This document shows, one piece after another, positions 38,702 to 55,085 of a stretch of 64,000 nt of DNA. The DNA is taken from NCBI GenBank assembly GCA_050014195.1, contig JBEKDT010000015.1:32001-96000 (forward strand). Direction: 5' to 3'. The notes under the pieces are model-generated. The model saw only the letters and a program-made list of their open reading frames with translations. It made no database searches and was not told the origin of the DNA. Each line of letters opens with the position of its first letter. The first letter of the stretch is position 1. Source of the stretch: Desulfomonilia bacterium. GTDB taxonomy: Bacteria; Desulfobacterota; Desulfomonilia; UBA1062. The position numbers and the translations under genes were made by a program.

Positions 38702-39565
38702 TCATGTTTCAAACGGCCCGGTCTCCTTGCGCTCGGGATAGGTGGAGCAGCCGTAAAGTTTGTTGACGGGTGTCGAGCCTTTCTTTGCAGTGTGCAGTAT
38801 CGTCGCGCTGCCGCTCCAGGGGCACGGCAGTGGTGCAGGGTTATCGCGGACAGGTGTCTGAAAGGCTGCTGGTTTGTTTTTTGGTAATGGGACGAGATCG
38901 GCCTTGCTCCGGCCGATCATTGCAAAGAGCTGTTTGCCGTTGACGAGCTTGATGGGGTTGCCTTTGGAAAAATCGATCGCCTCCTGGGTAAAGATGCCTG
39001 AGGTAATAACGATTCCTCCCGAGGCCTTCTCGTCGTAAACGACTCCGAGCAGTTCGTGGACAATGACGACGTCCACGCTCTCCATCTTCCAGTGCTTGCA
39101 CTGGACAAAGATGGTCTCGCCGTTCTTTTTCAGGACAAGGTCCACTCCCTTGTATGCCCCGCCGCCTCCGGTCTCAATGACGGTGTAGCCTCTTCTTCTG
39201 TATGCATCGCCCACGATCCGCTCGAAATCCCGCCAGCTCAGTGCCCGGAGTGTTTCCCAATTCTTCCGGCTCTTGAAAAGAACGATCCTCTTTTTGCGGA
39301 TGAAAACTGAATTCAAGAAAAAGAGGCCTGCCGTTACGAGAAAAAAGAACAAGGCCGAGTTGGCAAATGTCGGGCCTGATTGCGCCAGGCTTCTCAAAAA
39401 GATATCATGAGGAATGCCGTTGGGACTTGGTGCTGCATGGTAATTACCCCACATTGCCGGGAATGCATACTTCAATAATCCATAGCTGAGGACTGCAAGA
39501 ATAACGCTGACCCACCATAATGCCTCAATCAGGTCATCAGCAAGTGAGGTGATTTTTCTTGCCAT
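38702..39565 (-). CDS. Membrane-anchored Mrr-like restriction endonuclease with degenerate C4 Zn finger
   Basis: Two TMs, LSWRDFERIV, GVDL...FVQCKHW, ITSGIFT, LVNGKQL; CPWSG...GCSTYP. Confidence 0.85.
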   Translation of the reverse strand: MARKITSLADDLIEALWWVSVILAVLSYGLLKYAFPAMWGNYHAAPSPNGIPHDIFLRSLAQSGPTFANSALFFFLVTAGLFFLNSVFIRKKRIVLFKSRKNWETLRALSWRDFERIVGDAYRRRGYTVIETGGGGAYKGVDLVLKKNGETIFVQCKHWKMESVDVVIVHELLGVVYDEKASGGIVITSGIFTQEAIDFSKGNPIKLVNGKQLFAMIGRSKADLVPLPKNKPAAFQTPVRDNPAPLPCPWSGSATILHTAKKGSTPVNKLYGCSTYPERKETGPFET

Positions 39566-39833
39566 GATCTAATCCTTTCCCGGTAGTATGCTTGATTATA
39601 GCTTTATCTAAATTTCACCAGATATGTATTAATAACTTCGGATCAGGGAAAAACCAGTCAGACCAAGAAAAAATGAGACGGATTTATCGTATCATCGCTG
39701 TCCTCAAGCACGCCGGTGGGAATTTCACAGCAGCTCATCATGGAGGAGGTCTTGTCAAAGGGCCGGAAGGGTTCCATGCCTGCGCCCGGGTAATCGCGCC
39801 TGGTTGTGTGGTTTACCTTGAATCAGCTGGTTT

Positions 39834-40004
39834 TTAGTTATTGCCGCACCGCGCCTGCATGGCAGCGATGTCTTCAGGGGCAAGCCCTTTGCAATCGGAA
39901 TTAATCCTGTAATACATGATGGAACCCGGGTTTTTGCTGTGCTCGAGACCCTGGGCATGGCCGAACTCATGGGCCAGCGTACGCACAAGCATGTTGTGGC
40001 CGCT
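39834..40004 (-). pseudogene. C-terminal catalytic half of an interrupted matrixin (M10-like) metalloprotease
   Basis: Minus frame missing from the ORF track reads SGHNMLVRTLAHEFGHAQGLEHSKNPGSIMYY...CGNN*: HExxHxxGxxH plus Met-turn. Confidence 0.88.
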
Positions 40005-40030
40005 TAAATGTTAAATCTTCTTATATACTC
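40003..40030. other. Left att junction of the integrated element (core CT 40003-40004)
   Basis: Host GGCCG-CT then element arm TAAATGTTAAATCTTCTTATAT, an inverted match to the right-end arm. Confidence 0.85.
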
Positions 40031-40198
40031 CCTTTTATAGTCACTGGCAAAATCTCTGCATCCCATAGATCATCAATATCGTAATAGTATCATAAACTTG
40101 GAACCCACTTTGACAAATTGATGTAAAATATATTTTAAGCTTTGGTGTAATGAAATTTATTTTATAATGAAGATAAAAAATATTTTGGAGGAACATCA

Positions 40199-40432
40199 AT
40201 GAATACCAAAGCCATACATCTATCTCACATAAATGTGAATTCCTGGCAGCGTTTCAAATCGTGCGCAGCTATAAAAAATATGGCTATTAACGATCTAGCG
40301 AACGTGATGATTGAGGAATTCGTGGATGATTTCGAGGAAAAACTCTTTCGAGAAGCCTATCACAAGAAGCTTGCCGACCCCACTACCGATCTCAGTAAAC
40401 CTATAACAGTCAAACTCACGAGGACGAAGTAA
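40199..40432 (+). CDS. Putative ribbon-helix-helix DNA-binding protein
   Basis: GGAGG RBS; beta-helix-helix pattern IHLSHI...WQRFKSCAAIKNMAINDLANVMIEEFV. Confidence 0.55.
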   Translation: MNTKAIHLSHINVNSWQRFKSCAAIKNMAINDLANVMIEEFVDDFEEKLFREAYHKKLADPTTDLSKPITVKLTRTK

Positions 40433-40433
40433 T

Positions 40434-40652
40434 ATGAAAAACATCAGCGAGTGTGAGAGTTTCGAGGAATGGGCAATGTCGTTCAGTGATGATGAATTCA
40501 AGGAATTCGTCGCTGACAAATTTGGTGAACTTTCGATGGATCTGCGGAATAGAGATTTTAACATTGATCTCGTCTTACCAATCGTCGAATCAATAAAACA
40601 GGCTGTTTTTATACGTTATCAGTCGAAAGATCCGACAATCACAAATCATTAA
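40434..40652 (+). CDS. Hypothetical acidic protein
   Basis: Starts 1 nt after the previous stop; 72 aa. Confidence 0.5.
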   Translation: MKNISECESFEEWAMSFSDDEFKEFVADKFGELSMDLRNRDFNIDLVLPIVESIKQAVFIRYQSKDPTITNH

Positions 40653-40876
40653 AAACACAATGAACATCCCAGGCCTGTATAAACCCCTATGTTTGTCAAA
40701 TAAACATCACCTGGGACATCTCAGGAAGGAAAGCACTCATTGTAGAAAGGAACCGCATTCTTGCGGATTCTATAGAACAGGTGGGATAGGGTCGCTCCCG
40801 ACAAGAACGGTAAACTCCTTGGACCGTTCTTCCCACTTTTTATCATTCCATGGAGAACATGCACCGAGGAGGCATA

Positions 40877-41458
40877 ATGGAACGGGTTTCACGACGAATC
40901 TATCATAATGACCCTAAATTCAAGCCCAAGACTATCAAAGGTAAGACCAGATGGCAGCATGACAATAGCAAATGGCCCCTCAATTTCGGGTGGATGGAGA
41001 AGGACAAAAGTATCTGGCGCAGACTCAATAATCCCAAGGATCGGAGTTTCCATCACATGATTACAATCCTACAACACTTATGGGAGAAAAGGCTGGATCT
41101 GTTCGAGAGTAAATTTATTGCTGAACGTATAAACGCTGGTTTGTACAATACGCATAAATACGATGATGAGGGAAAGGAACGGAGATGGCCCTTTGTGATG
41201 TGTGCTCCACTTGATTATGATTATTTAGAAGCCCGAGACCTGGATCAAAGAAAGATCAGCTATTGTCTCAATGCACTCGTGAAGTGTGGCTTCTTACGAA
41301 GTTTCCGTCGGATAGGTCGCAATGGTCCAGTGAACTATGCAATCGGCTATTACATAGTGACATCACACGCTCCTTATGGCCGTGCATATCCTTTTTTGAA
41401 GAGTAACCCAGCGTGTCAAAAAGCACTGATTAATTTCAAATTCAGGGAGAAGATGTAG
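40877..41458 (+). CDS. Basic hypothetical protein, candidate replication/wHTH protein
   Basis: GAGGAGG RBS; ISYCLNALVKCGFL...NYAIG resembles a winged-helix end; followed by repeats. Confidence 0.5.
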   Translation: MERVSRRIYHNDPKFKPKTIKGKTRWQHDNSKWPLNFGWMEKDKSIWRRLNNPKDRSFHHMITILQHLWEKRLDLFESKFIAERINAGLYNTHKYDDEGKERRWPFVMCAPLDYDYLEARDLDQRKISYCLNALVKCGFLRSFRRIGRNGPVNYAIGYYIVTSHAPYGRAYPFLKSNPACQKALINFKFREKM

Positions 41459-41469
41459 TGATTTTGAAA

Positions 41470-41530
41470 TGTAAAAAGATCTACCCATGGTTTGTAAAAA
41501 GATCTAGCCATGGGGCATGGATAGATCTTT
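41470..41530. repeat. Iteron-like repeats (candidate ori or pac site)
   Basis: TGTAAAAAGATCTASCCATGG twice (41470, 41493) plus inverted CATGGATAGATCTTT (41516-41530), followed by AT-rich DNA. Confidence 0.7.
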
Positions 41531-42251
41531 ATCATATTTGATGGTTGGTTGATTAATGTTGAATAACAATATGTTACACGATAAATTGAAAAAATCAATT
41601 GTGGCACATATTATACCTATTTTTAGGTATCCCTTATATAGTACCAATAGGTTCTTCTTCACTTCGTTCAGAAGAACATTGAGCAAACTTCGTTTGCTCT
41701 ATCTCCCTCTTCTCTTTTTCAATGGAAGGAATGGAAAGACTATCCCATTCAGATTGAAAGAGTTTGTTTTTCCCCATTAGGGGAATTTTAGTCGGGAGCC
41801 TAAGTTTTGGAGGCTCCATATGAAATTGAAGGTTTCAAAGGTTGCCAGAGTGTTTCTCAGTATCCATTTGGCAAGTGACCTATTCGGGTCCAGTGCCAGG
41901 GGATTTCCCATCTACCAAGAAGCACATGATTCATTGAAGATCAATCCAAGTACCCTCGCCACTGTAAGATGGGTGGATGATCGGGAGCTACTTACATCAC
42001 TCAAATATTGGAGGCGTGATGGGTATGTGTATGGGTTGTTGCTGAACCGATTGGTTACGGGAGACCTCCCATGTGCTGGGTATGAAGGCAGTCGGGAGCC
42101 ATATGGTGATTTTTGAGGATTAATCCGGGCTTACCAAGTCTAAAGTCTTAAGTTATACTTTAGACTTTGGCACAAGAAGGCATAAAAAACGAGGAATAAA
42201 CTAATCATTTGAAATGTAATAAATAAATACAACGGGTTATGAGGTAATTGA

Positions 42252-44063
42252 ATGACACTTACACGAACCAGATTCCCAATCAAAGAGGATAAAGCACCAG
42301 ACATCGACCCTACCATTGACCCTGAAACTGACATCGATCAGGAACATAAAACCAACATACCCACTACCAAACAGAGAGGGTTCCCTAAAGGATCTCCAAG
42401 GCCTCCGAGGATAGCCGAGCGCTGGCAGGAGAACACGGAAGAAGCCTTCTATGCCTGGTTGGAAGATGTCAAGCCCATGATCCTTACACGATCAGGTAGG
42501 TATGAGGTCTTCCGACCCACACCTGAGCAGAAGACAATCATCAAGGCCGTCTTCACACAAGAAAATGGAAAGCTTAAGCACTCCATGATCCTGTCCATTC
42601 AGCCTCGTAGACACGGCAAGAGTACAGTCTTTGCAATCATAGCACTCTTCTTTTTCTGTTCCAGGAAGAACTACACCATTTCTTTGCTAGGTAATAACGA
42701 TACGCACACCGATAGGACAATGCTCAGGAAGCTCAAGTCCATCATCCAGCATACCGGAGGCTTAAGAATTCGGATAGACCCCGACAGGGACATCCTTCAT
42801 GACTGTATACGCCAGGAAACCTGGGGAAACCAAATAATCAAGCAAGGCGTTTCAAGTGCATCCGCATTCGGAGAGCGTATAAATCTGCTATGGGTATCGG
42901 ACCTCCATGCAGCCCCTGACATCTCGATATTCAACGCAGTCCAGGCCTCACTCTTAGACTCGGAAGATTCCCTGATCCTCATAGACAGCAATGCAGATTC
43001 CATAGGCGGTCCCGTTCATGGCTTGGAAGAAGAAGCCATGTCCGACCCTTCAATATTTTGCAGACACCTGGAATACAAGGATTTTGAAGAGTTTACAGAG
43101 AAAGCCCCTGCATGGATTGACCGATCCAGAGCCAAGCGCATACAAAGAACAGCCTTGGAAGCAGACTACCAGCGCGACATCCTCGGCAAACGCTCATCAG
43201 TAGCCAATGCTCTCTTCCCCGAAATCCTTATCAGGGCAGCTATGGACAGCTATAAAATCCCCGTTCTTGACATCAAAGACCTCGCCCATGGCAGACCCTA
43301 CAAGGTCGGTGCTGGTTTAGACCGAGCAAAGCTGTTGTCTCCGATAATGGGAGGAGATCACAGCGTCCTGACGACCGTTGCCAAGGTCGCCCAGACATCA
43401 GGTGAGCCCGAATATTTCATCCTCGACATGCACGATTTTACCTTGAACCTCAGCAAGGCAATAAAGGCCAGGATCATAGAGAATCACAAGAGATACACCC
43501 TCACCAATGTTGTCTTAGAATCATTCGAGACAGTAGACCTTCTCCCATATCTGGCAGAAATGCAAATTTCCCATGAGTCAATCCATGCAACAGACGTCGC
43601 ACAGAACACGATATTCCCTGAGTTCTACCGCATAGTGAAGGACGGTAGGCTCCATATCCCGGCAAACTGCACCCAGCTTGCCGATGAAATGCGCTCATTC
43701 ATTTATACCGCAAAGAAACATGGACAATACAGCTTTGGGCATTCATCAAGCCAGTTCCATGACGATGCCGTGTACGCCACTGCATGGGCGATCTTCTCTC
43801 TCAGGAATGAGATTCTTAGCATGTATCAGCTTGATCTACTCGATTGTCAGAATCAATCCTCGCTCAAACGGGCTCTATGTTTCTTATTTGGTGGTTCAAA
43901 AGTCATGCACTGCTCTGAAGGCTGTGCTGCATTCCATTCAGTCCAGGACATGCACCAAGACTTCCTGGCATTCAATCAGTTGGACAGCGAGCTTAACTTG
44001 GTTGAGTTTTTCAAGGCATACGTCCAGACCAAAGACACCATCAAACAATATCAGGTGCTGTAA
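42252..44063 (+). CDS. Phage terminase large subunit-like protein
   Basis: PTPEQ Q-motif, QPRRHGKST Walker A, GAGLD...DHS nuclease aspartates, HDDAVYA; located upstream of portal. Confidence 0.8.
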   Translation: MTLTRTRFPIKEDKAPDIDPTIDPETDIDQEHKTNIPTTKQRGFPKGSPRPPRIAERWQENTEEAFYAWLEDVKPMILTRSGRYEVFRPTPEQKTIIKAVFTQENGKLKHSMILSIQPRRHGKSTVFAIIALFFFCSRKNYTISLLGNNDTHTDRTMLRKLKSIIQHTGGLRIRIDPDRDILHDCIRQETWGNQIIKQGVSSASAFGERINLLWVSDLHAAPDISIFNAVQASLLDSEDSLILIDSNADSIGGPVHGLEEEAMSDPSIFCRHLEYKDFEEFTEKAPAWIDRSRAKRIQRTALEADYQRDILGKRSSVANALFPEILIRAAMDSYKIPVLDIKDLAHGRPYKVGAGLDRAKLLSPIMGGDHSVLTTVAKVAQTSGEPEYFILDMHDFTLNLSKAIKARIIENHKRYTLTNVVLESFETVDLLPYLAEMQISHESIHATDVAQNTIFPEFYRIVKDGRLHIPANCTQLADEMRSFIYTAKKHGQYSFGHSSSQFHDDAVYATAWAIFSLRNEILSMYQLDLLDCQNQSSLKRALCFLFGGSKVMHCSEGCAAFHSVQDMHQDFLAFNQLDSELNLVEFFKAYVQTKDTIKQYQVL

Positions 44064-44269
44064 TGTACGAGAAGACAGAAGATTTATGGCTCCCATTAAT
44101 AGGAGATGGTCAGATAGAATTTAGATGTGCAGCCTGCCGGAGATATTTTGGGAGAGGTTTATTCCCACCAGGATCTTTCCTGCTTCATAAATGTGGGAAG
44201 TGTGACCGGATAAACAGGCTTGGAGCCCATGGCGCTTCATTGGCATCACTCGGGGTAATAAAAAAATAA
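44063..44269 (+). CDS. Mu Com-like zinc-finger protein
   Basis: EFRCAAC...HKCGKCDRIN, matching Com RCxxC...KCxxCxxxN spacing. Confidence 0.6.
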   Translation: MYEKTEDLWLPLIGDGQIEFRCAACRRYFGRGLFPPGSFLLHKCGKCDRINRLGAHGASLASLGVIKK

Positions 44270-44284
44270 GGAAGGTAACAAGTA

Positions 44285-44485
44285 ATGGCAACAGGAACAG
44301 TAAAATGGTTCAACAGAGAAAAAGGGTATGGGTTTATCACAGTAGACGGTGGAAGTGATGTCTTTGTGCATTGGAAAAACATCTTAGGAGATGGGTTCAA
44401 GATGCTGGTTGAAGGCGATTCCGTAAGATTCGACATCGAGGAAGGCCCGAAGGGAGATCAGGCAGTTAACGTGAGGGAAGAATAA
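44285..44485 (+). CDS. Cold-shock protein (CspA family)
   Basis: [15 protein letters not shown] (RNP1), DVFVH (RNP2). Confidence 0.95.
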
Positions 44486-45003
44486 TGATCAAGCAAAATG
44501 GCAAATGGACGAGGATTCCACCCGAGCTTGAGCGGGCTTTTTACGCCCACCATGAGGCCGGTCATGTGGTGATGCATTACCTCAAAAAAGTGAGATTTGC
44601 TTATGTGACTATCAATGGAACCATGTCTGAACGTCCAGATGTTAAATCTTTCGTCTGCGTTAATCCAATATCCTTTGAGAAAAGGAAAAAGGTACTGGAA
44701 AGGGAATTTCTTCTTGATATGGCCGGGACAATTGCCGAAAAAATTTATCTCAAGTCCAAAGGCTATGAGGTGTGTCCCGGGTATACAAAAAGTGACTTGC
44801 GGTTAATCATGAACAAGGCTGAAAAGTATTTTGGGATTACAGAACCAGATGTAATTGACAAAAAACTAAAAGAACTTGAGCCCGAGTGCAAAAATCTCAT
44901 TGAACAGAACTGTAAAGCTATTACAGCCATTGTGGAAGCCCTACTGAAAGAAGAGACGATAGGATACAAAAAGGCCAGAGAGATCATCAAAAGAATAAAA
45001 TAA
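44485..45003 (+). CDS. Stand-alone peptidase M41 (FtsH C-terminal)-like protein
   Basis: AHHEAGHVV, MAGTIAE, SDL, AIVEALLKEETI. Confidence 0.7.
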   Translation: MIKQNGKWTRIPPELERAFYAHHEAGHVVMHYLKKVRFAYVTINGTMSERPDVKSFVCVNPISFEKRKKVLEREFLLDMAGTIAEKIYLKSKGYEVCPGYTKSDLRLIMNKAEKYFGITEPDVIDKKLKELEPECKNLIEQNCKAITAIVEALLKEETIGYKKAREIIKRIK

Positions 45004-45135
45004 GTTTTCGTCTTGTTATAGAAAAAAACTATAATAACATATATCACGAAAAGCCCCCTTTTCATGCATAGAGCCCCATGGAGGCCAGCCGACGGCCAAA
45101 CCATTGGGGCTCTTTTGCTTTTAGGAGGTTAGTGA

Positions 45136-46482
45136 ATGTTTTGGAACAGCGTTGTTGACGATGTAGCATTTCGAACATGGGGATTCAGTGCGACTGACCC
45201 CGTCTTGATGCGGAAGCAGGAACACCTCCGCAGGATTGAGTATTACCACGACTTACAGTTAGATTTCCTGCGGATGCAGCTTACCCGACATTTCGCAGAT
45301 GCAAGCAAGATCACGCCGATGTTTATCAATGTGACCCGAAAAGTCATAAACAACATTGCCAGGGTTTACATTTATCCGGTCACGAGGCAGATCGTCAAAG
45401 GCTCAACAACCGACACCGAACTTTTCCAAGCAATTGCCCTCACATCGTCTCTTGGAAGAAAACTCAAGCTGGCAAGTCGATATTGCAAGCTCCTTAAAAC
45501 CCTTCTGCTCAGGCCAATATGGCGTGATGGTCACATGGACTTGGACCTGATAACGGGTGACAAAACCGATGTCACTTATGGTGATGTTCCGGAGCAGTTA
45601 CTATCGGTCAAAATAACGATCTATCCTGACTCAGGAAAGCTCGAAGACCTAACATATAGCCTTTGGACTGCCCAAGAGTTCCAGACGCTTGACTACAGAA
45701 ATAAAGTGATTGCAAGCCAGCCAAATCCTTACGGCGTTTTGCCATTCGTCCCGATCTGGGATGGTGTTCCAGTTCGAGATTTTTGGATCGATGGCGGTGA
45801 CGATCTGATCACAGCCCAGGATGCCGTTAACGAGAGGTTGACCGATTTATGCTATGTTTTACGCCTTCAAGGATACGGTCAGCCTTATACAATCGGTGTA
45901 CCACAAAGCACCGACTTTTATTTGGGACCAGGTGCAGTAACCCAACTGCCACAGGGATGTAGCATGGGCTTTGCCTCAACTAACGCCCCAATCAGCGCGA
46001 TCATCGAAGCAATAAAATTTCTCATAGGTCAGACAGCTGTCTCGTATGGCCTGTCCGCGCATATTCTAATTGACGAACCGGAACGATCTTCCGGAATTAG
46101 CAAGATAATTTCTAGCCAGGAGCTAGATGAAGCCCGGCAGGACGAGGTCGAGCTTTTCATGGATTACGAGCATAACTTATTCAATATGTTCAAGGTTCTA
46201 TGGAACCATCACAATCCTGGTAAACAGTTTTCCAAGAATGCAGAATTAAAAGTATCATTTGAAGATCCTAAACCAGAAGTTGATCCTCTGGTCCAAGCGA
46301 ACGCATGGACTGCATTGATGGGCATGGGCGTCATATCGCCTGTGGACATCGTCATGGCTCGCAATCCTGACATAACGAGTAGACAAGATGCCCTCGCATA
46401 TTTGCTGACTGTAGAATCCGAGATGAGAACCCTCAATGAGGGATATCCCATAACCCCAAATCCAGGAAGGACGGTACCCTAA
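45136..46482 (+). CDS. Phage portal protein (SPP1 gp6-like)
   Basis: AGGAGG RBS; EYYHD, INVTRKVIN, NPYGVLPFVP, DLITAQDAVNERLTD, SSG; 448 aa. Confidence 0.78.
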   Translation: MFWNSVVDDVAFRTWGFSATDPVLMRKQEHLRRIEYYHDLQLDFLRMQLTRHFADASKITPMFINVTRKVINNIARVYIYPVTRQIVKGSTTDTELFQAIALTSSLGRKLKLASRYCKLLKTLLLRPIWRDGHMDLDLITGDKTDVTYGDVPEQLLSVKITIYPDSGKLEDLTYSLWTAQEFQTLDYRNKVIASQPNPYGVLPFVPIWDGVPVRDFWIDGGDDLITAQDAVNERLTDLCYVLRLQGYGQPYTIGVPQSTDFYLGPGAVTQLPQGCSMGFASTNAPISAIIEAIKFLIGQTAVSYGLSAHILIDEPERSSGISKIISSQELDEARQDEVELFMDYEHNLFNMFKVLWNHHNPGKQFSKNAELKVSFEDPKPEVDPLVQANAWTALMGMGVISPVDIVMARNPDITSRQDALAYLLTVESEMRTLNEGYPITPNPGRTVP

Positions 46483-46877
46483 TGGAAAAAGAAGCAATCG
46501 TCAACGCAGACGGAAAAAGCGATGAAACAAAGGAAAAAGCCCAGGCCCAGGGCACGGACAATGCCACCGAAAAAGGCAGCAAGATGATTCCCAAGGAACG
46601 ATTCGATCAGGTCAACCAGCAGAAAAAAGAGGCTCTTGAAGCCCTGCAATCCATTGTTGATGAACTCATCGAGGACATCCCGGAAGAGTTTAAAGACCTC
46701 GTCCCTGACCTATCACCAGCAGTTAAAATAATGTGGATCAGGAACGCGCAGAAAAAGGGAATCTTTGGGAAGACATCTCCTGATGGGCTAGACACAAAGA
46801 GATCCGGGAATACGGCCCCCAGAAATCTTGAAGGTCTTAGTACACACGATTTAAGGAAACTTGGTTACAAAAACTAA
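46482..46877 (+). CDS. Capsid scaffolding protein-like
   Basis: MIPKERFDQVN motif plus coiled coil, between portal and capsid genes. Confidence 0.7.
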   Translation: MEKEAIVNADGKSDETKEKAQAQGTDNATEKGSKMIPKERFDQVNQQKKEALEALQSIVDELIEDIPEEFKDLVPDLSPAVKIMWIRNAQKKGIFGKTSPDGLDTKRSGNTAPRNLEGLSTHDLRKLGYKN

Positions 46878-46956
46878 AAAATAAATCCATTGTCTCAACA
46901 TAGTTAGAGGCCATTGAAGAGCCCTTGTTTCTGACGTGGAAACAGGAGGAAAATCA

Positions 46957-47877
46957 ATGGCTTTAACATTGTTAGATCAAGCTAAACTTTGCGTTGATCC
47001 GCTTCAAAAAGGCATTATCGAAGAGTACCCGCGAACTTCTGAGGTGCTTCAACGACTACCCTTTATGTCAGTTTCAAGTGATACTTACAGATACAACAGG
47101 GAAGAAATTTTGCCAGGTGTCGGTTTTCGAGGCGTGAACGAGAGCTATAATGAAAGCACTGGCATACTCAATCCCCAGATCGAGACACTCATGATCTCAG
47201 GTGGGTTTAGCGATGTTGACCGTGCTCTAATTAAAACACAGGGAAATGTAAACGATCTTCGGGCAATTTATGACGGACTAAAGGCCAAGGCATTAAGCCT
47301 GTTCTGGACTAAAGAATTCTTTAAGGGTGACACTACAGTCAACCCACGAGGATTCGATGGTCTTGAAAAACGTCTGACTGGTCCGCAGCTCCTCGATATG
47401 GGCTCAAGTGCAGGTGGTGACACCTTGACCCTTGCCATGCTCGACGAGCTGATCGACTGCTGCCCATGGGGTGTTGATTGTTTGTTTATGAACAGGACCA
47501 TGAGGAGAAAGGTCAATGCCTTGATTCGTGCTTCCGGTGCAGCAATCGAGACGGTCTCTGATGCCTTCGGTCAACAGATACCTTCATATGCATCCATACC
47601 AATCGGGATAATTTGGATCGATGAAAAAGGTAATGAAATCCTTGATTTCAATGAACCTGCGCCTGGTGATGGTGCTACTGTTACCACCTCAATTTATGCA
47701 GTTAAATTTGGTGCAGGGCAGTACGTTTCAGGATTGCAGGTCAGTCCTATAGAAGTGCTCGATCTCGGCTTGTACGCTGGCGGTATCAAGTTCAGAACGC
47801 TGATCGAGTGGATCAGTGGCATGGCTGTCTTTAACTCAAGGGCAGCAGCGCGTCTACGTGGAATTAAAAACGCATAA
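46957..47877 (+). CDS. Major capsid protein
   Basis: GGAGG RBS; LPF...YRYNRE..LPGVGFRGVNESY, FDGLEKRL, LDELID, AAARLRGI; 306 aa after scaffold. Confidence 0.82.
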   Translation: MALTLLDQAKLCVDPLQKGIIEEYPRTSEVLQRLPFMSVSSDTYRYNREEILPGVGFRGVNESYNESTGILNPQIETLMISGGFSDVDRALIKTQGNVNDLRAIYDGLKAKALSLFWTKEFFKGDTTVNPRGFDGLEKRLTGPQLLDMGSSAGGDTLTLAMLDELIDCCPWGVDCLFMNRTMRRKVNALIRASGAAIETVSDAFGQQIPSYASIPIGIIWIDEKGNEILDFNEPAPGDGATVTTSIYAVKFGAGQYVSGLQVSPIEVLDLGLYAGGIKFRTLIEWISGMAVFNSRAAARLRGIKNA

Positions 47878-47999
47878 TAGTGTCTCACTCCCAGGAGTGA
47901 GTGTTTTACCCGACCGGTCTGCCACTCAGACCTGTGTCATATTCTTAAATGGGGAGCAAGGATCGGCCTTGCTCCCCAGCCTCCAAGAAAGGATGAAGC

Positions 48000-48191
48000 A
48001 TGGAACGTAAAAGAGGTAGGCCCAAGAAAAGTATAAAACTGATGGAAAATAGGGTTGGGTTCTTCATTGAGATTTACAAGGATCTTCATCAGCAACTTAA
48101 GACTGAGTCCGACAGGCAAGGTGTGCCCATGTGCAAGTTTGTAGAAATAGCAATCAAAGAATTACTTAAGTCATGTACAATGACATCTTAA
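48000..48191 (+). CDS. Small RHH-like protein with RGRP AT-hook-like motif
   Basis: RKRGRPKK...FIEIYKDLHQQLKTESDRQGVPMCKFVEIAIKELL. Confidence 0.6.
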   Translation: MERKRGRPKKSIKLMENRVGFFIEIYKDLHQQLKTESDRQGVPMCKFVEIAIKELLKSCTMTS

Positions 48192-49180
48192 AATTCCAGC
48201 ATCGTGTAGATCAACGAAGCAATGCTCTTGCCTCGGATATGATCCGAGAGCTTGATGCTGCAAGGGTTGAAATCCTTGGAAAACTGGCTGATCTGCAAGA
48301 TCGTTACATTCGAGGCGACTACAACACCGAGACATTTCAACGTAAACAGGCTTTCTTACTGCATCAGAGGAACGAGGTTGAAGATACCCTTGATAGTGTT
48401 TTCAGCAATATTGGAGATCAACTCCAATCAGCCTCAGAAGACGTTATCGCAGCGACAACCGTACACACGATCAGTACAATGAACAATAGCACTGGCCTTG
48501 ACATCCAGTTCTTCCACTTGGACCCTGAACTTGTCCAGGCATGGTTCCAGACCGGCCTTATCGAAGGCTCGACCCTCACAGACTGGCTCAATAAGCTAAA
48601 ACAGTCCACAGCCGACAGAATAATTAAGGCACAAAGACAATCCCTCATTCAGGGCGAGAGTGTGGGGGGAATGGTCAAACGATTACGCCAGGAGGGCGTT
48701 GAGGGAAGTTATCGAGACCTCACTGGCCTTGCCCGAACCAGTATGCTTTCGGCTGCAAACTATGCTCGTGAACAAACCGTTACTCAGGGCTTCGGGGATG
48801 TGCTCACGGGCTGGCAATATTGCGCCACGCTAGATTCGAGGACGTGTTTGGTGTGTGGGGATTTGGATGGAACCACATATGGCCCTACAGATCAAAAAGA
48901 AGATTTACCCTTACATTGGTGCTGCCGATGTTGCTACATTCCACTAGTAGGTGGTGAGGGTGCTAACACTGATGATCGTCCAGCCGTTACAGATGAAAGA
49001 GTTGAGAGGTTTGACGGCACATACAACGAGTGGATGCAATCGCAATTAGAATCCGACCCCGGCTTCGTCAAGGATGTTTTAGGCCCTGGAAGGTTTGATT
49101 TATTCAAAGATGGGAAAATAAGCCTTTCAAATATGGTTACAAATGGCGAAATAACAACCCTTGCAGACCTCAAAGGATAG
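48173..49180 (+). CDS. Phage head morphogenesis / minor capsid protein (SPP1 gp7, Mu F-like)
   Basis: LARTS, ATLDSRTCLVCGDLDG, PLHWCCRC, VLGPGRFDLFKDG. Confidence 0.85.
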   Translation: MYNDILKFQHRVDQRSNALASDMIRELDAARVEILGKLADLQDRYIRGDYNTETFQRKQAFLLHQRNEVEDTLDSVFSNIGDQLQSASEDVIAATTVHTISTMNNSTGLDIQFFHLDPELVQAWFQTGLIEGSTLTDWLNKLKQSTADRIIKAQRQSLIQGESVGGMVKRLRQEGVEGSYRDLTGLARTSMLSAANYAREQTVTQGFGDVLTGWQYCATLDSRTCLVCGDLDGTTYGPTDQKEDLPLHWCCRCCYIPLVGGEGANTDDRPAVTDERVERFDGTYNEWMQSQLESDPGFVKDVLGPGRFDLFKDGKISLSNMVTNGEITTLADLKG

Positions 49181-49206
49181 GGGTTTTCAGAGGTCGGGGC
49201 TAACCT

Positions 49207-49434
49207 TTATCCTTCTATAGCCACTAAAACCGCTCCATTAACATATGAAGCATAGCGATGATTTAAGTAAGTTACAATTTCATTATCCCATTTTAACTCA
49301 TCCCCTTGATTATCTCTTGGCTTCCTATCTTTTATAGTCACCTCCATTGAACTATATACTCCAAACTGAACGCTAAAACCTTTGGCCTTCCCGTCTCTCA
49401 TCGTTCCACTAATCATTATAAACTTATATTCCAT
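49207..49434 (-). CDS. Hypothetical protein
   Basis: ORF overlapping the upstream minus-strand gene; GGAG RBS before MEYKF. Confidence 0.5.
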   Translation of the reverse strand: MEYKFIMISGTMRDGKAKGFSVQFGVYSSMEVTIKDRKPRDNQGDELKWDNEIVTYLNHRYASYVNGAVLVAIEG

Positions 49435-49714
49435 TGCTTGACTCTCCTTTTTCTGGCTCCCCATATAGGGATACCCAGACTGCTCTTTTCATTTCTTTGG
49501 TTATGTATTTACCAACTATCGTTCTACAATCTTCAGCAAGTGCAATAAGCTCCTTTTTTGCTTTCTTTATGCGTTTGTCGGTCCAATTAGGGGTAACATC
49601 TAGAAGGTCACACCATTCAATATGACTGAGCATGTCATCCAAAACACATAACTGGGTTAACAATTCGCCAATGTCTATACTGCCTGCAACCTTACCATTT
49701 TTTAACTTACCCAT
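49424..49714 (-). CDS. Hypothetical protein
   Basis: GAGGTG RBS; 96 aa. Confidence 0.55.
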   Translation of the reverse strand: MGKLKNGKVAGSIDIGELLTQLCVLDDMLSHIEWCDLLDVTPNWTDKRIKKAKKELIALAEDCRTIVGKYITKEMKRAVWVSLYGEPEKGESSNGI

Positions 49715-49947
49715 TTTTCACCTCTCTCGTTCATCATGCTTACATTATATCATATTTTCAGATGAAACACGGTTTTCGGATAGGGTTTCAACAGGTCAGG
49801 GCAAAACCTTATCTCCTATATCTTTCTTTAATAATACAATCAATTTATATCTTTCACGAAATGTGAAAGATAGTCTTGTTTTTTAAATAAATAAAAATTA
49901 TTATGAATATATCTTGTTATATCAAAAGCCTATGAAAGGAGAGAATT

Positions 49948-50301
49948 ATGGTTGCAAAAAAGGGACAAGTTAAGAAGTCAGGCAATGGCGATACCATTGA
50001 AAAGATCAATCGCAAACCAGTCCAGAAAAAGGCGGCTATCAAGGACGATCAAACAGCAGCCCCCAAAGAAATCAAAACAGATGTTTTCGGTAACAGAGTC
50101 AATACCCAGTCCAGCCTGATCAATGAACTCCTCCTGAAAGGCACGAAGAAGGACGTCATTGTCAAGGCTATCATGGACAAGTTCAACAGTCCTGAGAAGA
50201 CGGCTACCGGCAAACTTCGGGGGCACATCAAACACCTCAAGAAAGAAGGACATTCTGTAACCGAGAAGGATGACACCTATACCATAAAGATAAAAGGCTA
50301 G
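49948..50301 (+). CDS. Lys-rich small protein, possible wHTH nucleic-acid binder
   Basis: AAGGAG RBS; basic composition; GKLRGHIKHLKKEGHSV...YTI. Confidence 0.6.
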   Translation: MVAKKGQVKKSGNGDTIEKINRKPVQKKAAIKDDQTAAPKEIKTDVFGNRVNTQSSLINELLLKGTKKDVIVKAIMDKFNSPEKTATGKLRGHIKHLKKEGHSVTEKDDTYTIKIKG

Positions 50302-50309
50302 GGGGCGAT

Positions 50310-50504
50310 ATGGATCTGATTGAACGTCAGGCAAAAGCGGATCAAGTCAAAAACAGGGTGTTCAGTATTCTTACTGTGGCCTTAGCTCAGGTCAGGAATA
50401 CAGTTGAGGAGTCCGGTCTTGAGATGAGAGACTGTGGCATCAGTGTTGAGCGATACCAGGCCGGAGATCATTCAATATTCGTCGATCTCAGGATGAAGAT
50501 ATAA
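50310..50504 (+). CDS. Hypothetical protein
   Basis: Follows the previous gene; terminator downstream. Confidence 0.55.
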   Translation: MDLIERQAKADQVKNRVFSILTVALAQVRNTVEESGLEMRDCGISVERYQAGDHSIFVDLRMKI

Positions 50505-50537
50505 AAATATAACCCGCACCTACGAAAGACCTCCCTT

Positions 50538-50566
50538 GGCCCCGGTGCAATGCCGGGGCCTTTTTT
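50538..50566 (+). terminator. Rho-independent terminator
   Basis: GGCCCCGG-TGCAATG-CCGGGGCC followed by TTTTTT. Confidence 0.85.
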
Positions 50567-50618
50567 ATGCCCCTCGATGAATTTGGGGAGTCCTTTTAAG
50601 GCCCCGCCGCAACTGTGT

Positions 50619-50849
50619 CTAATCCTTCAATGGAATCCAGGCCCAACGGTGAAAGCCTTCTCTAAGCTTATATTTATAACAATCACCATTCGAATAAGTT
50701 GATGTCAGGATTCCTTGATCAGCATTGTAATCCCAGGTAAAAATATCACCGTATGTTCCTCGGACCTGACACTTAAAACTTTTCTTTAAATCTATACTCA
50801 AAAAATCCAACTCGTCCTCGTCCCAAATTTCCTTATCTCCCAGATCCAT
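50619..50849 (-). CDS. Hypothetical protein
   Basis: AGGAG RBS before MDLGDKE. Confidence 0.5.
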   Translation of the reverse strand: MDLGDKEIWDEDELDFLSIDLKKSFKCQVRGTYGDIFTWDYNADQGILTSTYSNGDCYKYKLREGFHRWAWIPLKD

Positions 50850-51026
50850 TGTGATTCTCCTATAAATTTTTATTCGACGAATAAACAATCGTACAGACTA
50901 TCGTAGCACACTTTTTTCAAAACCTTGTTCAGTCTGGAAAAATAGTTTTTATGAGTAATTATCTTGTTTTATTTATATATTTATTTTATGATATTCTTAA
51001 AATAAATAAGGCAGGAGGGCCAAGTT

Positions 51027-51269
51027 ATGGCGGAAAAATTGAGGGCTTTTACCCTTTACATCGAAGATATAAAGCTCCGTAAGATGAAGGCGATAGCAGC
51101 CTACAAGGATAAAAAGACAAGGGAAATTGTCAACGAGATGTTCGATCTCTACCTGGCAAAGTTCGCTGAAACTGAGCAAGGCAAGCAGCTTATGGCATCC
51201 TTTGAAGAAGAACACAAAGGGGAAATCAAACTTACTCGCCTGAAGAAACCGGAATCACAAAAACCATGA
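51027..51269 (+). CDS. Putative ribbon-helix-helix regulator upstream of the recombinases
   Basis: GGAGG RBS; FTLYIED...KMKAIAA...TREIVNEMFDLYL. Confidence 0.6.
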   Translation: MAEKLRAFTLYIEDIKLRKMKAIAAYKDKKTREIVNEMFDLYLAKFAETEQGKQLMASFEEEHKGEIKLTRLKKPESQKP

Positions 51270-51286
51270 TATAATAAGGGGGAAAT

Positions 51287-51994
51287 ATGGCTGATGTGTA
51301 CATGGTCACTAGAACATCGACAAATCACCAGGACCTTTCCATTGAGGCCCAGGATGCAGCCCTGAGAAAATGGGCTATGAATCATGGGCACATTGTGAAG
51401 GGTATTTCCACAGAGGACGGGGTGAGTGGTGGACGGGACATTAAGAAGCGTCATATTATGAAGATCCTCAACAAGATGGGCAAAGGTGACATCCTGGCTA
51501 CGTATTCATGGAGTAGGCTGACGAGAAGCCTTTCAGACCTGATGGAAATTGCCAAGATCCTGGAAAAGAAGGGGTCACATTTGGTGAGTCTCGTAGAGCA
51601 GATTGATACGAGCACCCCACAGGGCAGACTCTTCTATCACATCATGGGGTCTATGCATCAGTTTGAAAGAGAGCTGATTGCTCAGCGAGTTAGGTTTGGA
51701 CTGGACCACAAACGGTCAAAATCTGAGAAGTTGGGTGGCATGATTCCATTCGGCTATGATGTGAAGGTGGTTCCCGGTATGAATCGCAAGGGTGAGCCGA
51801 CCAAGATCAAGAAGCTGGTCCCAAACGAGAAAGAGCATTTTATCATAGAGAAGATACTTACATTGCGACGGGAGTCATGCACTTTGAAGAATATTGCCAA
51901 TACACTGAATGCCGAGGGCATCCCGACCAAGAATGGCAGTGTATGGCTTTCGGGCCAGATAAATAGGATAGTTCGACGGGAGGCAAGGGCATGA
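51287..51994 (+). CDS. Serine recombinase (resolvase domain plus short DNA-binding recombinase domain)
   Basis: RTSTNHQ..SIEAQ catalytic motif, SRLTRS, IDTSTPQGRL, FERELI, PFGY, IANTLNAEGIPT. Confidence 0.92.
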   Translation: MADVYMVTRTSTNHQDLSIEAQDAALRKWAMNHGHIVKGISTEDGVSGGRDIKKRHIMKILNKMGKGDILATYSWSRLTRSLSDLMEIAKILEKKGSHLVSLVEQIDTSTPQGRLFYHIMGSMHQFERELIAQRVRFGLDHKRSKSEKLGGMIPFGYDVKVVPGMNRKGEPTKIKKLVPNEKEHFIIEKILTLRRESCTLKNIANTLNAEGIPTKNGSVWLSGQINRIVRREARA

Positions 51995-53610
51995 CTACGG
52001 ATGGATTGAAACCACCTCTACGTTTTGGGGTGCTGTGCCGTGTTAGCACCGAACCTCAGGAAAAGCGTGGGGAATCCCTGAACAATCAAAAGAAGCAGGT
52101 CGAGTCTGCCGTGAAATATCTTGGTGGGATAATTACCATGCGATATGAGGGGCAAGAGCATAGTACACCAGGATCTGAACGAGAGATGCTTGACAGGGCT
52201 CTCGTAGATTCTGGCAAAGGTCTCTTCGATGCATTTATGGTCCCTGATCTCACAAGATGGACCAGGGACAATGAAAAGAATAAGCAGAGTATCAGAATTT
52301 TTAGGATGAACAAGATACGCTTTTTTGTAGGAACGATGGAGTTCAATTTAAACAAGTCTCATGATCGAATGATGATTGGAATGACGACAGAGGTCGGAGA
52401 AGGCACCGCTGGCTATATGGCAGAGAGGAGCAAGGAATGTCGTCATGATCTATTTAGTAAAGGAGTGCCATGTGTCGGTCAGAAACCCTATGGACGAAAG
52501 TATGACAAGAAGACAGGCACATGGAGTATCGACGAAGAAAAGAAGGAAATGATTAAGATAGCAGTCAAGAAGTTTCTATCAAAGATAGGCCGTGAGAAAA
52601 TAGGCCGTGAGAAAATTGCAGAGGAAATGGGAATTTCTCCAAGCACATTGTATATCATCTTCAAAAAATTCCTTGGTGATACATGGACCACTAAAATGGG
52701 GACAATGAAAATCCCTCCCCTGATTGAGGATCAGAAAATCATTAAAGCAGTCCATGAGAGACTTGAAAACAACAAGACCATCAACCATGATCCACGTGGG
52801 AAACATGCATATCTGTTATCCAGCATCATATTTTGCGCTGATTGCGGACTCACCCTGAATGGCGTTCCCGATCAGATGAACTATGGAAAGACTGAGGCCC
52901 AATATAAATATAGGTACAGACACCCAAAGAACAAAAGCATCAAGCGTTTTTGCCCAAATTATAAAGCATGGGACATCAGGGCAGAGGACATAGAAGAAGC
53001 TGTGATAATCCAAATGCTATATCTTTTTGGACATAGAGAAGCATTAGAGAAGTCCATATTAAGAACTGTCCCCAATAATGAAAAATTGCAAGAACTGTCT
53101 GCCACCAAGGCAAGGTATAATAAGGAGTTCGATAATATTGAAAAAGAAATACAGACCCTCATTGAAAAAACCGTCAAAGGAATATTTACGGATGAAGAAG
53201 CAAGACCCACTATGGAAAAATATCGTGAACGCAAGAGATTCCTCAAACTAGAGATGGATAATCTCGATACTCAGATTGGACAATCACCAACCAAAAAAGA
53301 GCTTAGTGCACTTGCCAAAAGAGTTCACCAACAGGCTTGGAAGGCACTTTATCAAAATCCTGCAAAAATGACATGGACTCAGAAACGGGAACTTTTGTTA
53401 AAGGTATTTTTAGGGAAGCATGTCTCTGGCGATAAACCAGGTATCTATGTCAAAAAAGTTGATGATGTCGTGCATTATTCTATCAAAGGACTAATCAATC
53501 AGGAGATTGAGGGGTGTCTTCCAATGAGCGATTGGGAGAGGGAAGAATTGCTAGATAATCCTATAAAAGCAAAAGGGAATAATATAACAAGTAAATTTAA
53601 CAATTACTGA
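51991..53610 (+). CDS. Large serine recombinase (integrase)
   Basis: CRVSTEPQ..SL..Q, DLTRWTR, KPYG, PPLI, YLLSSIIFCADCG Zn ribbon, coiled coil; the stop codon straddles the att junction. Confidence 0.92.
   Translation: MTTDGLKPPLRFGVLCRVSTEPQEKRGESLNNQKKQVESAVKYLGGIITMRYEGQEHSTPGSEREMLDRALVDSGKGLFDAFMVPDLTRWTRDNEKNKQSIRIFRMNKIRFFVGTMEFNLNKSHDRMMIGMTTEVGEGTAGYMAERSKECRHDLFSKGVPCVGQKPYGRKYDKKTGTWSIDEEKKEMIKIAVKKFLSKIGREKIGREKIAEEMGISPSTLYIIFKKFLGDTWTTKMGTMKIPPLIEDQKIIKAVHERLENNKTINHDPRGKHAYLLSSIIFCADCGLTLNGVPDQMNYGKTEAQYKYRYRHPKNKSIKRFCPNYKAWDIRAEDIEEAVIIQMLYLFGHREALEKSILRTVPNNEKLQELSATKARYNKEFDNIEKEIQTLIEKTVKGIFTDEEARPTMEKYRERKRFLKLEMDNLDTQIGQSPTKKELSALAKRVHQQAWKALYQNPAKMTWTQKRELLLKVFLGKHVSGDKPGIYVKKVDDVVHYSIKGLINQEIEGCLPMSDWEREELLDNPIKAKGNNITSKFNNY
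53582..53610. other. Right att junction (core CT 53607-53608)
   Basis: Element arm ATATAACAAGTAAATTTAACAATTA-CT then host GAATTG. Confidence 0.85.
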
Positions 53611-54364
53611 ATTGAAAAATGGTTATGCTTTCCCTGAACATGGTCCTCTCATACAGACCGGAAGCGAACTTCCCGGTCAGTTCGTTGCATGTGTTTTTGT
53701 AGCTCATCACCTGCGAATTGTGGTTTGATGCTATGGAACCGATGTCTGCAACAATACCGTTCAGGTCGTCCACCGTCTTCTGCAGGTCCGCTTGTTGGGC
53801 CTGGAGGCCTTCCAACTCGGCATCGAGGGACTGCTTCTGCCCGGAAAGACTTTGAAAGGTTCCCCTGGAGACGGTGTCATCCTTATTCGCTGCATCAAGC
53901 TCAGCCCTGTAGGCATTCAGGTGCCTCATGTATGCATCATATTGCGCTGAATAGGCGGCATTCTTCCGCTCCACCTCGGCTTTAAGATCATTGTACAGGG
54001 ACATGAGCTCATCATACGATGCCTTTGCATCGTCTATGCCTCTGCTGATGTTTTTCAGATTGTCCGTTACTGCCTGCCGGTTGTCATACACCAGGTCTAT
54101 CTCGATGGAGCCGGCCGGGTCTTCCTGGAAGATCTTGTGCCCGATGGCCTTCTCCCACATGGCGACCGCCTCATGAACGGCATCCGTAACCTCCTGCCTG
54201 CTCAATCCGAAGCGCTCATCGATGGAGTTGATGCGGTAGGTCATGATCGTGTTGAATGCCTCTGATCTGCCCTGGAAGATGCAGACAAAGAGGATACAGA
54301 TGATGATTTGTGGCAGATACCTGATGGGGCTTAAGGGGTGGCTCGTGTATGCATTTTTCATCAT
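53609..54364 (-). pseudogene. N-terminal part of the interrupted secreted matrixin-like metalloprotease
   Basis: Signal peptide, YRINSIDERFGLS, AMWEKAIG, LVYDNRQ, coiled coil, GLY...ITIFQF; joins 39834-40004 in frame. Confidence 0.85.
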
Positions 54365-54415
54365 GGTGGTACAGATATTTTTCGGGTGATATTCTAAAAA
54401 GCTTAACAGGCTACT

Positions 54416-54657
54416 TGTTCTCACCACGAAGGACTTAGCGCAGCATAGCCGCAACCAAAATGAGCTTGGGATTTGAGCAGACATAGAAGTCCTTCACCAC
54501 GAAGAGCACTTTAGGACACGAAGAAAGGAAACCTTTTGAAATAGTGGAACGGTTCAAAGAACCCACGATTGTCTGTTATGCATTTCTTAGATCATCTTCG
54601 TGCTCTTCGTGTCCTTCGTGGTGAAATTTCCCTGTGTGTGCTCTTCAACGATCCGGG
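54416..54657. repeat. Dispersed MITE/REP-like repeat, copy 3
   Basis: Same flanks as copy 2, but the interior is reverse-complemented between CACCACGAAG and CTTCGTGGTG. Confidence 0.85.
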
Positions 54658-54696
54658 GAATTCCAGGGACACCCTACTTAATTCTTGCATTCCAGA

Positions 54697-55008: not shown

Positions 55009-55029
55009 GGGATGTCTCCTTTTTCTTTT

Positions 55030-55062: not shown

Positions 55063-55085
55063 CAAATCTATTTTACGATCAACAA

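Follow-up and report, generated by a model that had tools for sequence, protein, structure and literature searches.

A compact capsid-encoding element with tandem serine recombinases interrupts a matrixin protease gene in a Desulfomonilia bacterium from peat

A protease gene interrupted by a capsid-encoding element

The window analysed here, a whole stretch of 64,000 nucleotides (nt) from contig JBEKDT010000015.1 (positions 32,001 to 96,000) of a Desulfomonilia bacterium, derives from a metagenome-assembled genome of 29 contigs and holds a gene of the matrixin (M10) protease family that is cut in two by an integrative element of 13,602 bp (positions 40005–53606 of the window, + strand), by which codons 1–252 of the gene are parted from the final 56. 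The element is present once in the genome, encodes capsid proteins, and carries the gene for a large serine recombinase at its right end; tail genes were not recognised in it. We regard it as probable that this is a compact phage-derived element inserted in the matrixin gene, and that it represents ordinary site-specific lysogeny or satellite-type carriage and not the programmed switch that had been proposed in an initial annotation of this DNA.

The N-terminal 252 codons (53609–54364, minus strand) comprise a signal-peptide-like start, the first beta-alpha-beta unit of the predicted catalytic domain, and a long predicted coiled-coil hairpin. They begin with an ATG at 54364, the same start as that of the ortholog in the sister-species genome G003, and end in ...RESITIFQF, of which the terminal TTC (F) occupies 53611–53609. 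Past this codon the frame reads AG/T AAT TGT TAA in the integrated state, with the stop at 53599–53597, two codons beyond the junction. The C-terminal 56 codons and their stop (39834–40004, minus strand) start from 40004 with AGC GGC CAC..., giving SGHNMLVRTLAHEFGHAQGLEH...SIMYY...CGNN, and close with the stop at 39836–39834; translated in full, the minus-strand frame from 40004 is SGHNMLVRTLAHEFGHAQGLEHSKNPGSIMYY...CGNN. The dinucleotide CT of the + strand (AG on the gene strand) is the sole sequence common to both junctions, at 40003–40004 on the left and 53607–53608 on the right, and the bases adjoining it differ. Neither half has a stop or a frameshift, and 252 + 56 codons give 308, the length of the intact homologs P0023, P0025, and P0053. 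When re-read from the sequence, the coordinates, frames, and CT core of the initial annotation all hold to the base, as does its claim that joining the halves yields an uninterrupted metalloprotease of ~308 residues. The G+C fraction is ~0.50 in the flanks vs. 0.34–0.51 within the element.

Boundary and intact orthologs

The two halves were kept separate and added to an alignment of 10 intact orthologs from related genomes (loci L003–L012). The N-terminal half ends at column 358 and the C-terminal half starts at column 359, with no gap or overlap relative to any of the 10 orthologs. The same boundary emerges from 44 proteins (P0023–P0066) gathered by searching 5.8 billion proteins and out of three clusters at 90% identity: in all 25 homologs that match in two parts (74–92% identity), the match to the C-terminal half starts one residue after the match to the N-terminal half, as with 1–252 and 253–308 in P0024 and P0053. 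In eight remoter proteins (45–55% identity) the local alignments end a few residues before the junction, with coordinates consistent with contiguity. Genomes G003 and G004, from two sister species (89 and 86% protein identity, respectively), have uninterrupted sites with the same context around the AG on the gene strand. Intact orthologs were thus looked for in relatives and found, both as empty sites in G003/G004 and at L003–L012, and the alignment across F/S-G-H, which the initial annotation had named beforehand as the point at which its boundary could fail, is contiguous in 10/10 orthologs and 25/25 homologs.

The G003 ortholog carries a 1-nt insertion (L002:2185–2220) that ends its frame ~20 codons upstream of the empty site; this either reflects an error in assembly or indicates that the protease can be dispensed with.

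The interrupted matrixin

The gene is predicted to encode a 308-residue metzincin of the matrixin family, of the secreted type. The C-terminal half alone matches Pfam Peptidase_M10 (PF00413) with E 5.8e-10 and 39.7 bits against a cut-off of 24 (47.8 bits for the intact ortholog L004), and 24 of 30 Atlas neighbours are clusters annotated with Peptidase_M10 only. Both the HEXXHXXGXXH zinc site (HEFGHAQGLEH) and the Met-turn (SIMYY) lie in this half, and residues H264, E265, H268, G271, H274, and M282 are invariant in the family alignment (A2). The N-terminal piece gives nothing but sub-threshold coiled-coil noise in Pfam. A signal peptide was recognised by eye only, as a hydrophobic stretch followed by SEA/F. 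Members of the gene family were found in two genera of the order (22 of 52 genomes), and an intact paralog (38% identical) is retained in this genome.

A structure was modelled for P0053, an intact homolog that is 92% identical, from a 16-sequence alignment (mean predicted local distance difference test, pLDDT, 78). The model has a low-confidence helix at 17–32 (by eye a signal peptide or membrane anchor), a beta-alpha-beta unit at 41–91, an antiparallel two-helix hairpin (95–161 and 167–229), two strands at 236–249, and the zinc-binding helix at 255–269. In the model, the insertion point after residue 252 falls between the last strand and the active-site helix. Because the element is inserted upstream of the zinc-binding helix, the N-terminal fragment is predicted to be unable to bind zinc; this bears out the earlier suggestion that a catalytically dead N-terminal coiled-coil fragment is all that can be made while the element is integrated, the hairpin being a modelled feature. 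Foldseek with the P0053 model returned no match at E ≤ 0.001. Its weak rows (E 0.01–0.04, 60–71 aligned columns) are the catalytic domains of matrix metalloproteinases MMP-3, -7, -8, -10, -11, and -13, the others being coiled coils, so that the fold assignment leans mainly on Pfam and the motif.

Serine recombinases and attachment sites

The rightmost gene of the element (51991–53610, + strand) encodes a 539-aa large serine recombinase with a resolvase catalytic domain (Resolvase, PF00239, E 1.9e-11), a zinc ribbon (Zn_ribbon_recom, PF13408, 1.2e-6), and a PHROG integrase match (4e-41). In an alignment with its relatives (A1), V18-S19-T20-E21..Q23 is invariant across 20 relatives, S19 being the serine. 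The A1 profile matches the catalytic domain of TP901-1 integrase (1.2e-13) and, over positions 62–465, an SPbeta-type recombinase (9dxh, 545 aa; 2.7e-9), with coiled-coil matches at positions 327–423; the 539-aa sequence alone had no match in the PDB, where its profile did, and PF07508 was not matched at E ≤ 0.01. The clade is rare: a search of 5.8 billion proteins gave only 21 relatives at E ≤ 1e-10, the closest of them 42% identical.

Serine integrases cross over at a 2-bp core, between a symmetric phage site (attP) and a barely symmetric host site (attB). The ends of the element form an inverted repeat around the core, with arms that match at 11/12 and 16/20 positions. None of 200,000 random 12-mer pairs drawn from the element reaches 11/12, and such symmetry occurs at 2 of 63,974 positions in the window. 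The host arms of attB are weakly symmetric (15/30). The near-palindromic reciprocal joint reported in the initial annotation is therefore confirmed, and with it the assignment to a serine-integrase element with a 2-bp crossover core: only CT is shared, and the recombinase lies at the right end. The catalytic domain with its serine, the large C-terminal part with a zinc ribbon, and the 2-bp core with a dyad attP are together those of a large serine recombinase. Judging by position and family, the 539-aa enzyme is the likely agent of this insertion.

The stop codon of the large recombinase, TGA (53605–53610), consists of the second core base and two host bases. In the circular form the open reading frame (ORF) would continue for 26 more codons into the left end of the element (40005–40084); since the stop is made at the junction, integration changes the C-terminus of the enzyme. 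The related recombinase ORF on IMG/VR contig L092 likewise continues into the flank.

A small serine recombinase of 235 aa (51287–51994, + strand; Resolvase 8.5e-34, Recombinase 1.5e-5) lies directly upstream and shares 4 nt with the beginning of the large recombinase gene; it consists of the catalytic domain and the first half of the 'Recombinase' domain. This tandem arrangement on the same strand was found in 13 of 72 related loci with enough upstream sequence (L016, L028, L046, L048, L051, L053, L058, L060, L063, L079, L081, L092, and L093). The pair recalls two-recombinase systems such as CcrA/CcrB, and the best NCBIfam matches of both enzymes are CcrB models, far under their cut-offs. When the element was scanned for repeats, no convincing invertible segment emerged on which the small recombinase might act, the best candidate having 31-nt arms with 71% complementarity.

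Integrated and empty sites in peat metagenomes

In all of the 24 peat and wetland metagenome runs listed, none of them an RNA run, at least 83% of the words sampled from a stretch across the right junction are present. Contigs from Logan for four of these runs (X2, X12, X15, and X24) were placed on positions 39000–55500; as contigs only, they can show presence and not absence. In X2, one contig of 15,347 nt (39098–54444) covers both junctions in the integrated state, and contigs of X15 and X24 run unbroken across the junctions. Three Joint Genome Institute (JGI) contigs, assembled independently, also carry the integrated form across both junctions, and four IMG/VR contigs are identical to the window, of which L014 and L015/L096 cross the right junction and L097 and L098 lie wholly within the element. 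Protein records hold the split fragments: the C-terminal half as P0046 (52 aa) on 41 contigs, and the N-terminal half, with two alternative starts, as P0047 on 18 and P0049 on nine, the latter two being 100% identical to the N-terminal half of this genome.

The empty site was observed in X12, where a contig joins 40002 to 53607, skipping 13,604 bp, with two bases that fit either side, in keeping with the 2-bp core. The shorter side of this contig measures 28 nt, and its depth is 9.8 vs. 31 for the element. Only in X12 do the flanking contigs stop precisely at 40004 and start again precisely at 53607, free of mismatches; the element contig there covers 39975–53636. Breaks of this kind at both cores are what a graph of 31-mers would give by branching there (the word length is deduced from the description of the tool). 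By this reasoning the empty-site path would share at least 30 exact bases per side with the strain of the window. The shared flank bases include positions at which G003 and G004 differ, and on that reading neither of these sister species is the source of the path. Because the flank depths (29.5–35.7) do not sum to 31 + 9.8, the share of the empty site can be given only roughly, as 5–25%. The junction check called for in the initial annotation thus came out in part: the attB joint is present in one of the four runs, and the attP joint of a circle in none of the four, as judged from contigs and not raw reads.

Gene content of the element and its relatives

The left-hand and central parts of the element encode a phage head module on the + strand. 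A divergent large terminase subunit (42252–44063; phrog_2, 1.5e-13, with weak Terminase_6C/6N matches) is followed by a cold-shock protein (44285–44485; phrog_729, 1e-19; NCBIfam CspE, 5e-28, below its cut-off) and by a 172-aa protein that comprises an FtsH-type (M41) metalloprotease domain only (44485–45003; HEAGH motif; Peptidase_M41, 7.3e-8, 32.9 bits vs. 29.9). A 448-aa candidate portal protein (45136–46482) is proposed from gene order, between the terminase and the scaffold and capsid genes; its only match is Phage_portal_2 at E 0.21, its single-sequence fold has a pLDDT of 35, and no PDB sequence match was found. A 131-aa scaffold-like protein (46482–46877) is likewise placed by position and is 63% identical to its counterpart on L092, with no family match. 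The major capsid protein (46936–47877; phrog_212, 2.1e-76; NCBIfam MCP_gp7_epsi_15, 9e-66) is ~50% identical to those of Bacillus and Paenibacillus phages of 50–59 kb. Further on are a small ribbon-helix-helix (Arc/omega-like) regulator (48000–48191; phrog_3180, 9.6e-7; Omega_Repress, 8e-4) and a MuF/SPP1 gp7-type head morphogenesis protein (48173–49180; Phage_Mu_F, 4.8e-11; phrog_241, 4.8e-45). All large ORFs of the element are intact.

Pfam, PHROGs, and NCBIfam gave no recognisable family for tail, lysis, replication, excisionase, or repressor functions, for small ORFs even at E 0.5. Nor was a directionality factor, which serine integrases require for excision, recognised among the small ORFs by the same collections, although such factors share no common family. 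Neither the element DNA nor the large terminase (by tblastn) had a match among 50,697 phage records. In its DNA, the cold-shock gene of the element is 76–88% identical to three csp genes on the chromosome of this genome, which points to capture from a related host. At 41470–41515, between a 202-aa ORF and the next small ORF, is a tandem pair of 23-nt repeats (87% alike) that could constitute an operator, an iteron, or a packaging site.

The recombinase sequence alone found no match in genome contigs. Relatives were sought with the A1 profile, which yielded 76 genome loci and six viral loci, and these were searched by tblastn with both halves of the protease gene and 13 element proteins. No protease half lies near any of 80 loci with recombinase relatives, and only L092, a contig of 6,660 bp, shares head genes (63% identity for the scaffold-like protein, 68% for the capsid protein, 60% for the MuF protein, 38% for the small recombinase, and 37% for the large). 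Its layout, the same as here, runs from the head module through a short run of small ORFs to the small and then the large recombinase at the end, and no tail genes intervene. A metagenome scan with the portal candidate found only three identical copies, and an IMG/VR scan with the capsid protein found only identical contigs. The element on L092 splits a gene other than the protease. A complete UPF0047-family gene (L092:4556–4972, + strand; 138 aa, Pfam E 6.7e-37) lies between its two recombinase genes, and the first 42 residues of another UPF0047 gene, cut after ...LVLVN, are encoded just past the large recombinase (L092:6518–6658, minus strand). The L092 element appears to come with a spare copy of the gene that it splits; the contig ends there, with one junction visible.

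Distribution and selection

At E ≤ 1e-20 the recombinase had no match in 51 other genomes of the family and order. The N-terminal half of the protease matches 26 places in 22 of 52 genomes, and only the match in this genome ends at the junction; genome G002 carries only a fragment of the gene. Independent elements at the same codon were looked for, as the initial annotation had proposed, and none of the other 25 places is split there. The split form is therefore not conserved across species, whereas within the population it is the rule (41, 18, and nine contigs for the three fragment proteins). One further protein, P0038, is a stand-alone 52-aa ORF on a JGI contig of 4,608 nt and is identical to the C-terminal end of the G004-type allele; it could be a second split copy in the sister lineage, or only a gene call at a contig edge. 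A search for such a copy by way of P0038 gave only unrelated metalloprotease matches in IMG/VR.

Ratios of non-synonymous to synonymous substitution rates (dN/dS) were computed for both halves, as the initial annotation had proposed. For this genome vs. G003 they are 0.45 (N-terminal half) and 0.40 (C-terminal half), and vs. G004 they are 0.33 and 0.13, such that pairs involving this genome span 0.33–0.45 and 0.13–0.40 for the two halves; for G003 vs. G004 they are 0.22 and 0.07. Lineage-specific non-synonymous and synonymous changes, assigned by parsimony over 220 codons, number 13:8 in this genome, 5:3 in G003, and 10:15 in G004. These values hint at some relaxation, but the changes are too few to separate relaxed from purifying selection. 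That neither half has a stop is as compatible with a recent insertion as with selection.

Repeats and promoter-like sites in the flanks

A dispersed repeat of ~190 nt with internal inverted symmetry, at 54430–54650, begins ~50 nt upstream of the protease start codon. It has 63 matches in the genome, including further copies in the window at 13357–13486 and 19699–19891, and its depth is 90–317 vs. 7–31 nearby in three of the four metagenome runs; an Rfam scan of 38000–56500, which includes it, returned no match at E ≤ 0.01. G003 shares just the proximal 49 nt upstream of the protease gene, from which it follows that the promoter region of the split gene is altered as well. In the host flank beside the C-terminal half, a 239-nt direct repeat (94.6% identity) occupies 36860–37098 and 38641–38879, its second copy falling inside an Mrr-type restriction endonuclease gene (38702–39565). 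Promoter-like sites in 39600–42300 number six vs. 6.6 in shuffled sequences, with no excess; because they are no commoner than in shuffles, an outward-facing site at 40116–40089 is not counted as evidence.

Origin and mobility of the element

On the explanation that we favour, the large serine recombinase of the element would catalyse exchange between attP and attB at the CT core within the protease gene. Integration would knock out the protease in carriers, because the N-terminal fragment is without HEXXH. The event would be conservative, and the reverse reaction between the two junctions (attL and attR) would rebuild the gene exactly; that the insertion is reversible in principle, via a serine integrase at a 2-bp core, is well supported. 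The exact empty site, at a low share in at least one natural sample, would come from cells that lack the element or from a co-existing lineage, and site occupancy would accordingly vary. We further infer that the element is still mobile. Within this explanation, it is about an even call whether the element is a tail-less, satellite-like entity that borrows the tails of a helper. The main argument for a maintained, tail-less, capsid-encoding element, as opposed to a random remnant, is that the compact layout appears to have been kept across the divergence from L092.

Several observations weigh against the explanation just given. No attP joint of a circle occurs in the contigs of the four runs, and the X12 element contig is unbroken for 30 nt past both ends, and not broken at 53608 as a branch to attP would have it. 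With attB seen and attP not, the empty site may stem from a lineage without the element, from the outset or after its loss, and not from ongoing excision, a point of little weight given that contigs drop rare variants; on balance, attB without attP is better explained by loss of the element, or by a sub-lineage that was never lysogenised, than by an excised circle that persists in the cell. The empty-site joint itself was seen in one of four runs only, in one short contig. Among recorded proteins, no intact one matches the two halves at 100%; in the relevant cluster, all 14 members of which were read, the best is 92% identical. As regards the satellite option, the portal protein is a candidate assigned by position, no tape-measure gene scored above cut-off in the host genome, and no obvious helper was seen there. 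With no recognised replication, tail, lysis, excisionase, or directionality genes, the element could be a decayed and immobile remnant.

This last possibility, a dead prophage whose tail, lysis, and replication genes have been deleted and whose empty site derives from a never-lysogenised sister lineage, is unlikely, albeit the least so of the alternatives. It would account for the presence of only head genes and recombinases in 13.6 kb, when the closest phage relatives of the capsid protein have genomes of 50–59 kb, and also for the missing attP joint and for the lack of an intact allele of this strain in the protein collection. Set against this, the two att junctions, the pair of recombinase genes, and every head gene are intact, and L092 has the same compact tail-less right half, which points to a maintained architecture and not to random loss. 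The X12 empty-site path, if the contig breaks are read as above, shares at least 30 exact nt per side with this strain, including positions where G003 and G004 differ, a further point against this reading.

The initial annotation had proposed an on/off switch for an extracellular protease, that is, a programmed recombinational switch or 'active lysogeny' with excision driven by a cue and the protease made only then. We consider this improbable, more so than decay. In its favour, excision would restore the gene exactly; X12 holds an exact empty-site joint; both halves are free of stops and frameshifts; the split state dominates in many assemblies (the C-terminal fragment on 41 contigs, and at least 83% of the right-junction words in all 24 runs), which would fit a maintained arrangement; and the element has no recognised lytic functions, a trait that it shares with the skin element of sigK. 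Against it, known switches make a circle along with the restored gene, and here the attB joint was seen without an attP joint. Searching the 51 other genomes did not turn up the recombinase; sister species have the gene intact, with one of 26 places split at this codon and none of the other 25; and no directionality factor was recognised. Substitutions in the split gene (13:8, vs. 15:18 in the two sisters together) are not lower in non-synonymous share, and if anything are higher; moreover, the frameshift in G003 may indicate that the gene is dispensable, and the paralog remains intact in this genome. On this evidence the switch reading is unsupported.

A broader conjecture combines both themes: an undescribed family of tail-less satellites with their own capsids and tandem serine recombinases, inserted in coding genes of anaerobic Desulfobacterota, which at this locus would act as a reversible, population-level toggle of the protease. 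This is a long shot, and if true would extend phage regulatory switches beyond spore-formers, cyanobacteria, and pathogens. An assembly artefact, in which a phage contig was chimerically joined into a bacterial contig, is ruled out for practical purposes by the independent assemblies across the junctions (three JGI contigs over both, two IMG/VR contigs over the right, and Logan contigs of four runs, one of them 15,347 nt long) and by the fit of the halves to their orthologs to the codon.

Comparison with known systems

Gene-splitting elements whose departure can restore the gene are known in Bacillus, Clostridioides, Listeria, Staphylococcus, and cyanobacteria, and finding one in an uncultured anaerobe from peat broadens this list without a new principle. 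A non-exhaustive check of the literature found nothing on Desulfomonilia together with prophages, serine recombinases, or matrixins. The locus is useful in providing a clean attB/attP pair for a rare clade of large serine recombinases, direct field evidence of variable site occupancy in one natural population, and a compact head-only architecture common to a diverged relative and perhaps that of a novel type of satellite. Were regulated excision to be shown, mobile-element dynamics would be tied to extracellular proteolysis in peat carbon turnover, which is speculative.

SPbeta is reportedly a complete phage of 134 kb. Inserted in spsM of Bacillus subtilis, it likewise has its large serine recombinase located at one end, and precise excision by the SprA integrase with the directionality factor SprB restores the reading frame (PMC4191935, PMC5499854). 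Its excision is tied to sporulation and to that known directionality factor, whereas the element here, at 13.6 kb, has no recognised tail, lysis, or directionality gene and no known cue. The host class (Desulfomonilia) is not known to sporulate. The skin element in sigK of B. subtilis and Clostridioides difficile is, like the present element, prophage-like and non-infective, with a large serine recombinase and with excision that restores the gene (PMC5025042). Skin occupies the same site across strains and is excised in a cell-type-specific manner with a directionality factor, whereas the element here was found in none of 51 related genomes, and no other split copy exists among the 26 places that match the gene.

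The excised form of the Listeria comK phage is said to persist as an episome and to re-integrate. Prophages of the phi10403S/A118 type in comK are likewise in-gene prophages, and lysis-free reversible excision has been proposed as a switch there (PMC7397523). That system thus has an episome after excision, in contrast to the attB joint without an attP joint in the four runs here. The integrase of phiSa3 is said to be of the tyrosine type. This phage, in the beta-toxin gene hlb of Staphylococcus aureus, likewise interrupts a gene for a secreted enzyme, with occupied and restored alleles in natural populations (PMC6597384). It is a complete phage with conversion genes, whereas the element here has serine recombinases, and its recognised cargo is a csp gene and an M41-like domain.

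In size and head-gene content the closest parallel is provided by phage-inducible chromosomal islands that form capsids (cfPICI), which are islands of similar size with their own large terminase, capsid, and head genes and without tail or holin genes (PMC10085698). The same combination of own terminase, capsid, and portal without tail or holin is seen here, the terminase, capsid, and MuF proteins being recognised and the portal placed by position. Of the core parts considered (an AlpA/MerR-type regulator, a primase-replicase, a small terminase, a head-tail adaptor or connector, and HNH), none was recognised with Pfam, PHROGs, and NCBIfam, as distinct from cfPICI profiles; because most core components were not recognised, the element is not regarded as a member of the cfPICI family. 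It further differs in its pair of serine recombinases, in a host phylum outside those reported, and in having no known helper. The gin element in gerE of Bacillus cereus is likewise small, short of a full prophage, and mobilised by a serine recombinase (PMC5595907). According to that article's abstract, gin is sporulation-specific and has no phage structural genes, whereas the element in the matrixin gene encodes the genes of a phage head.

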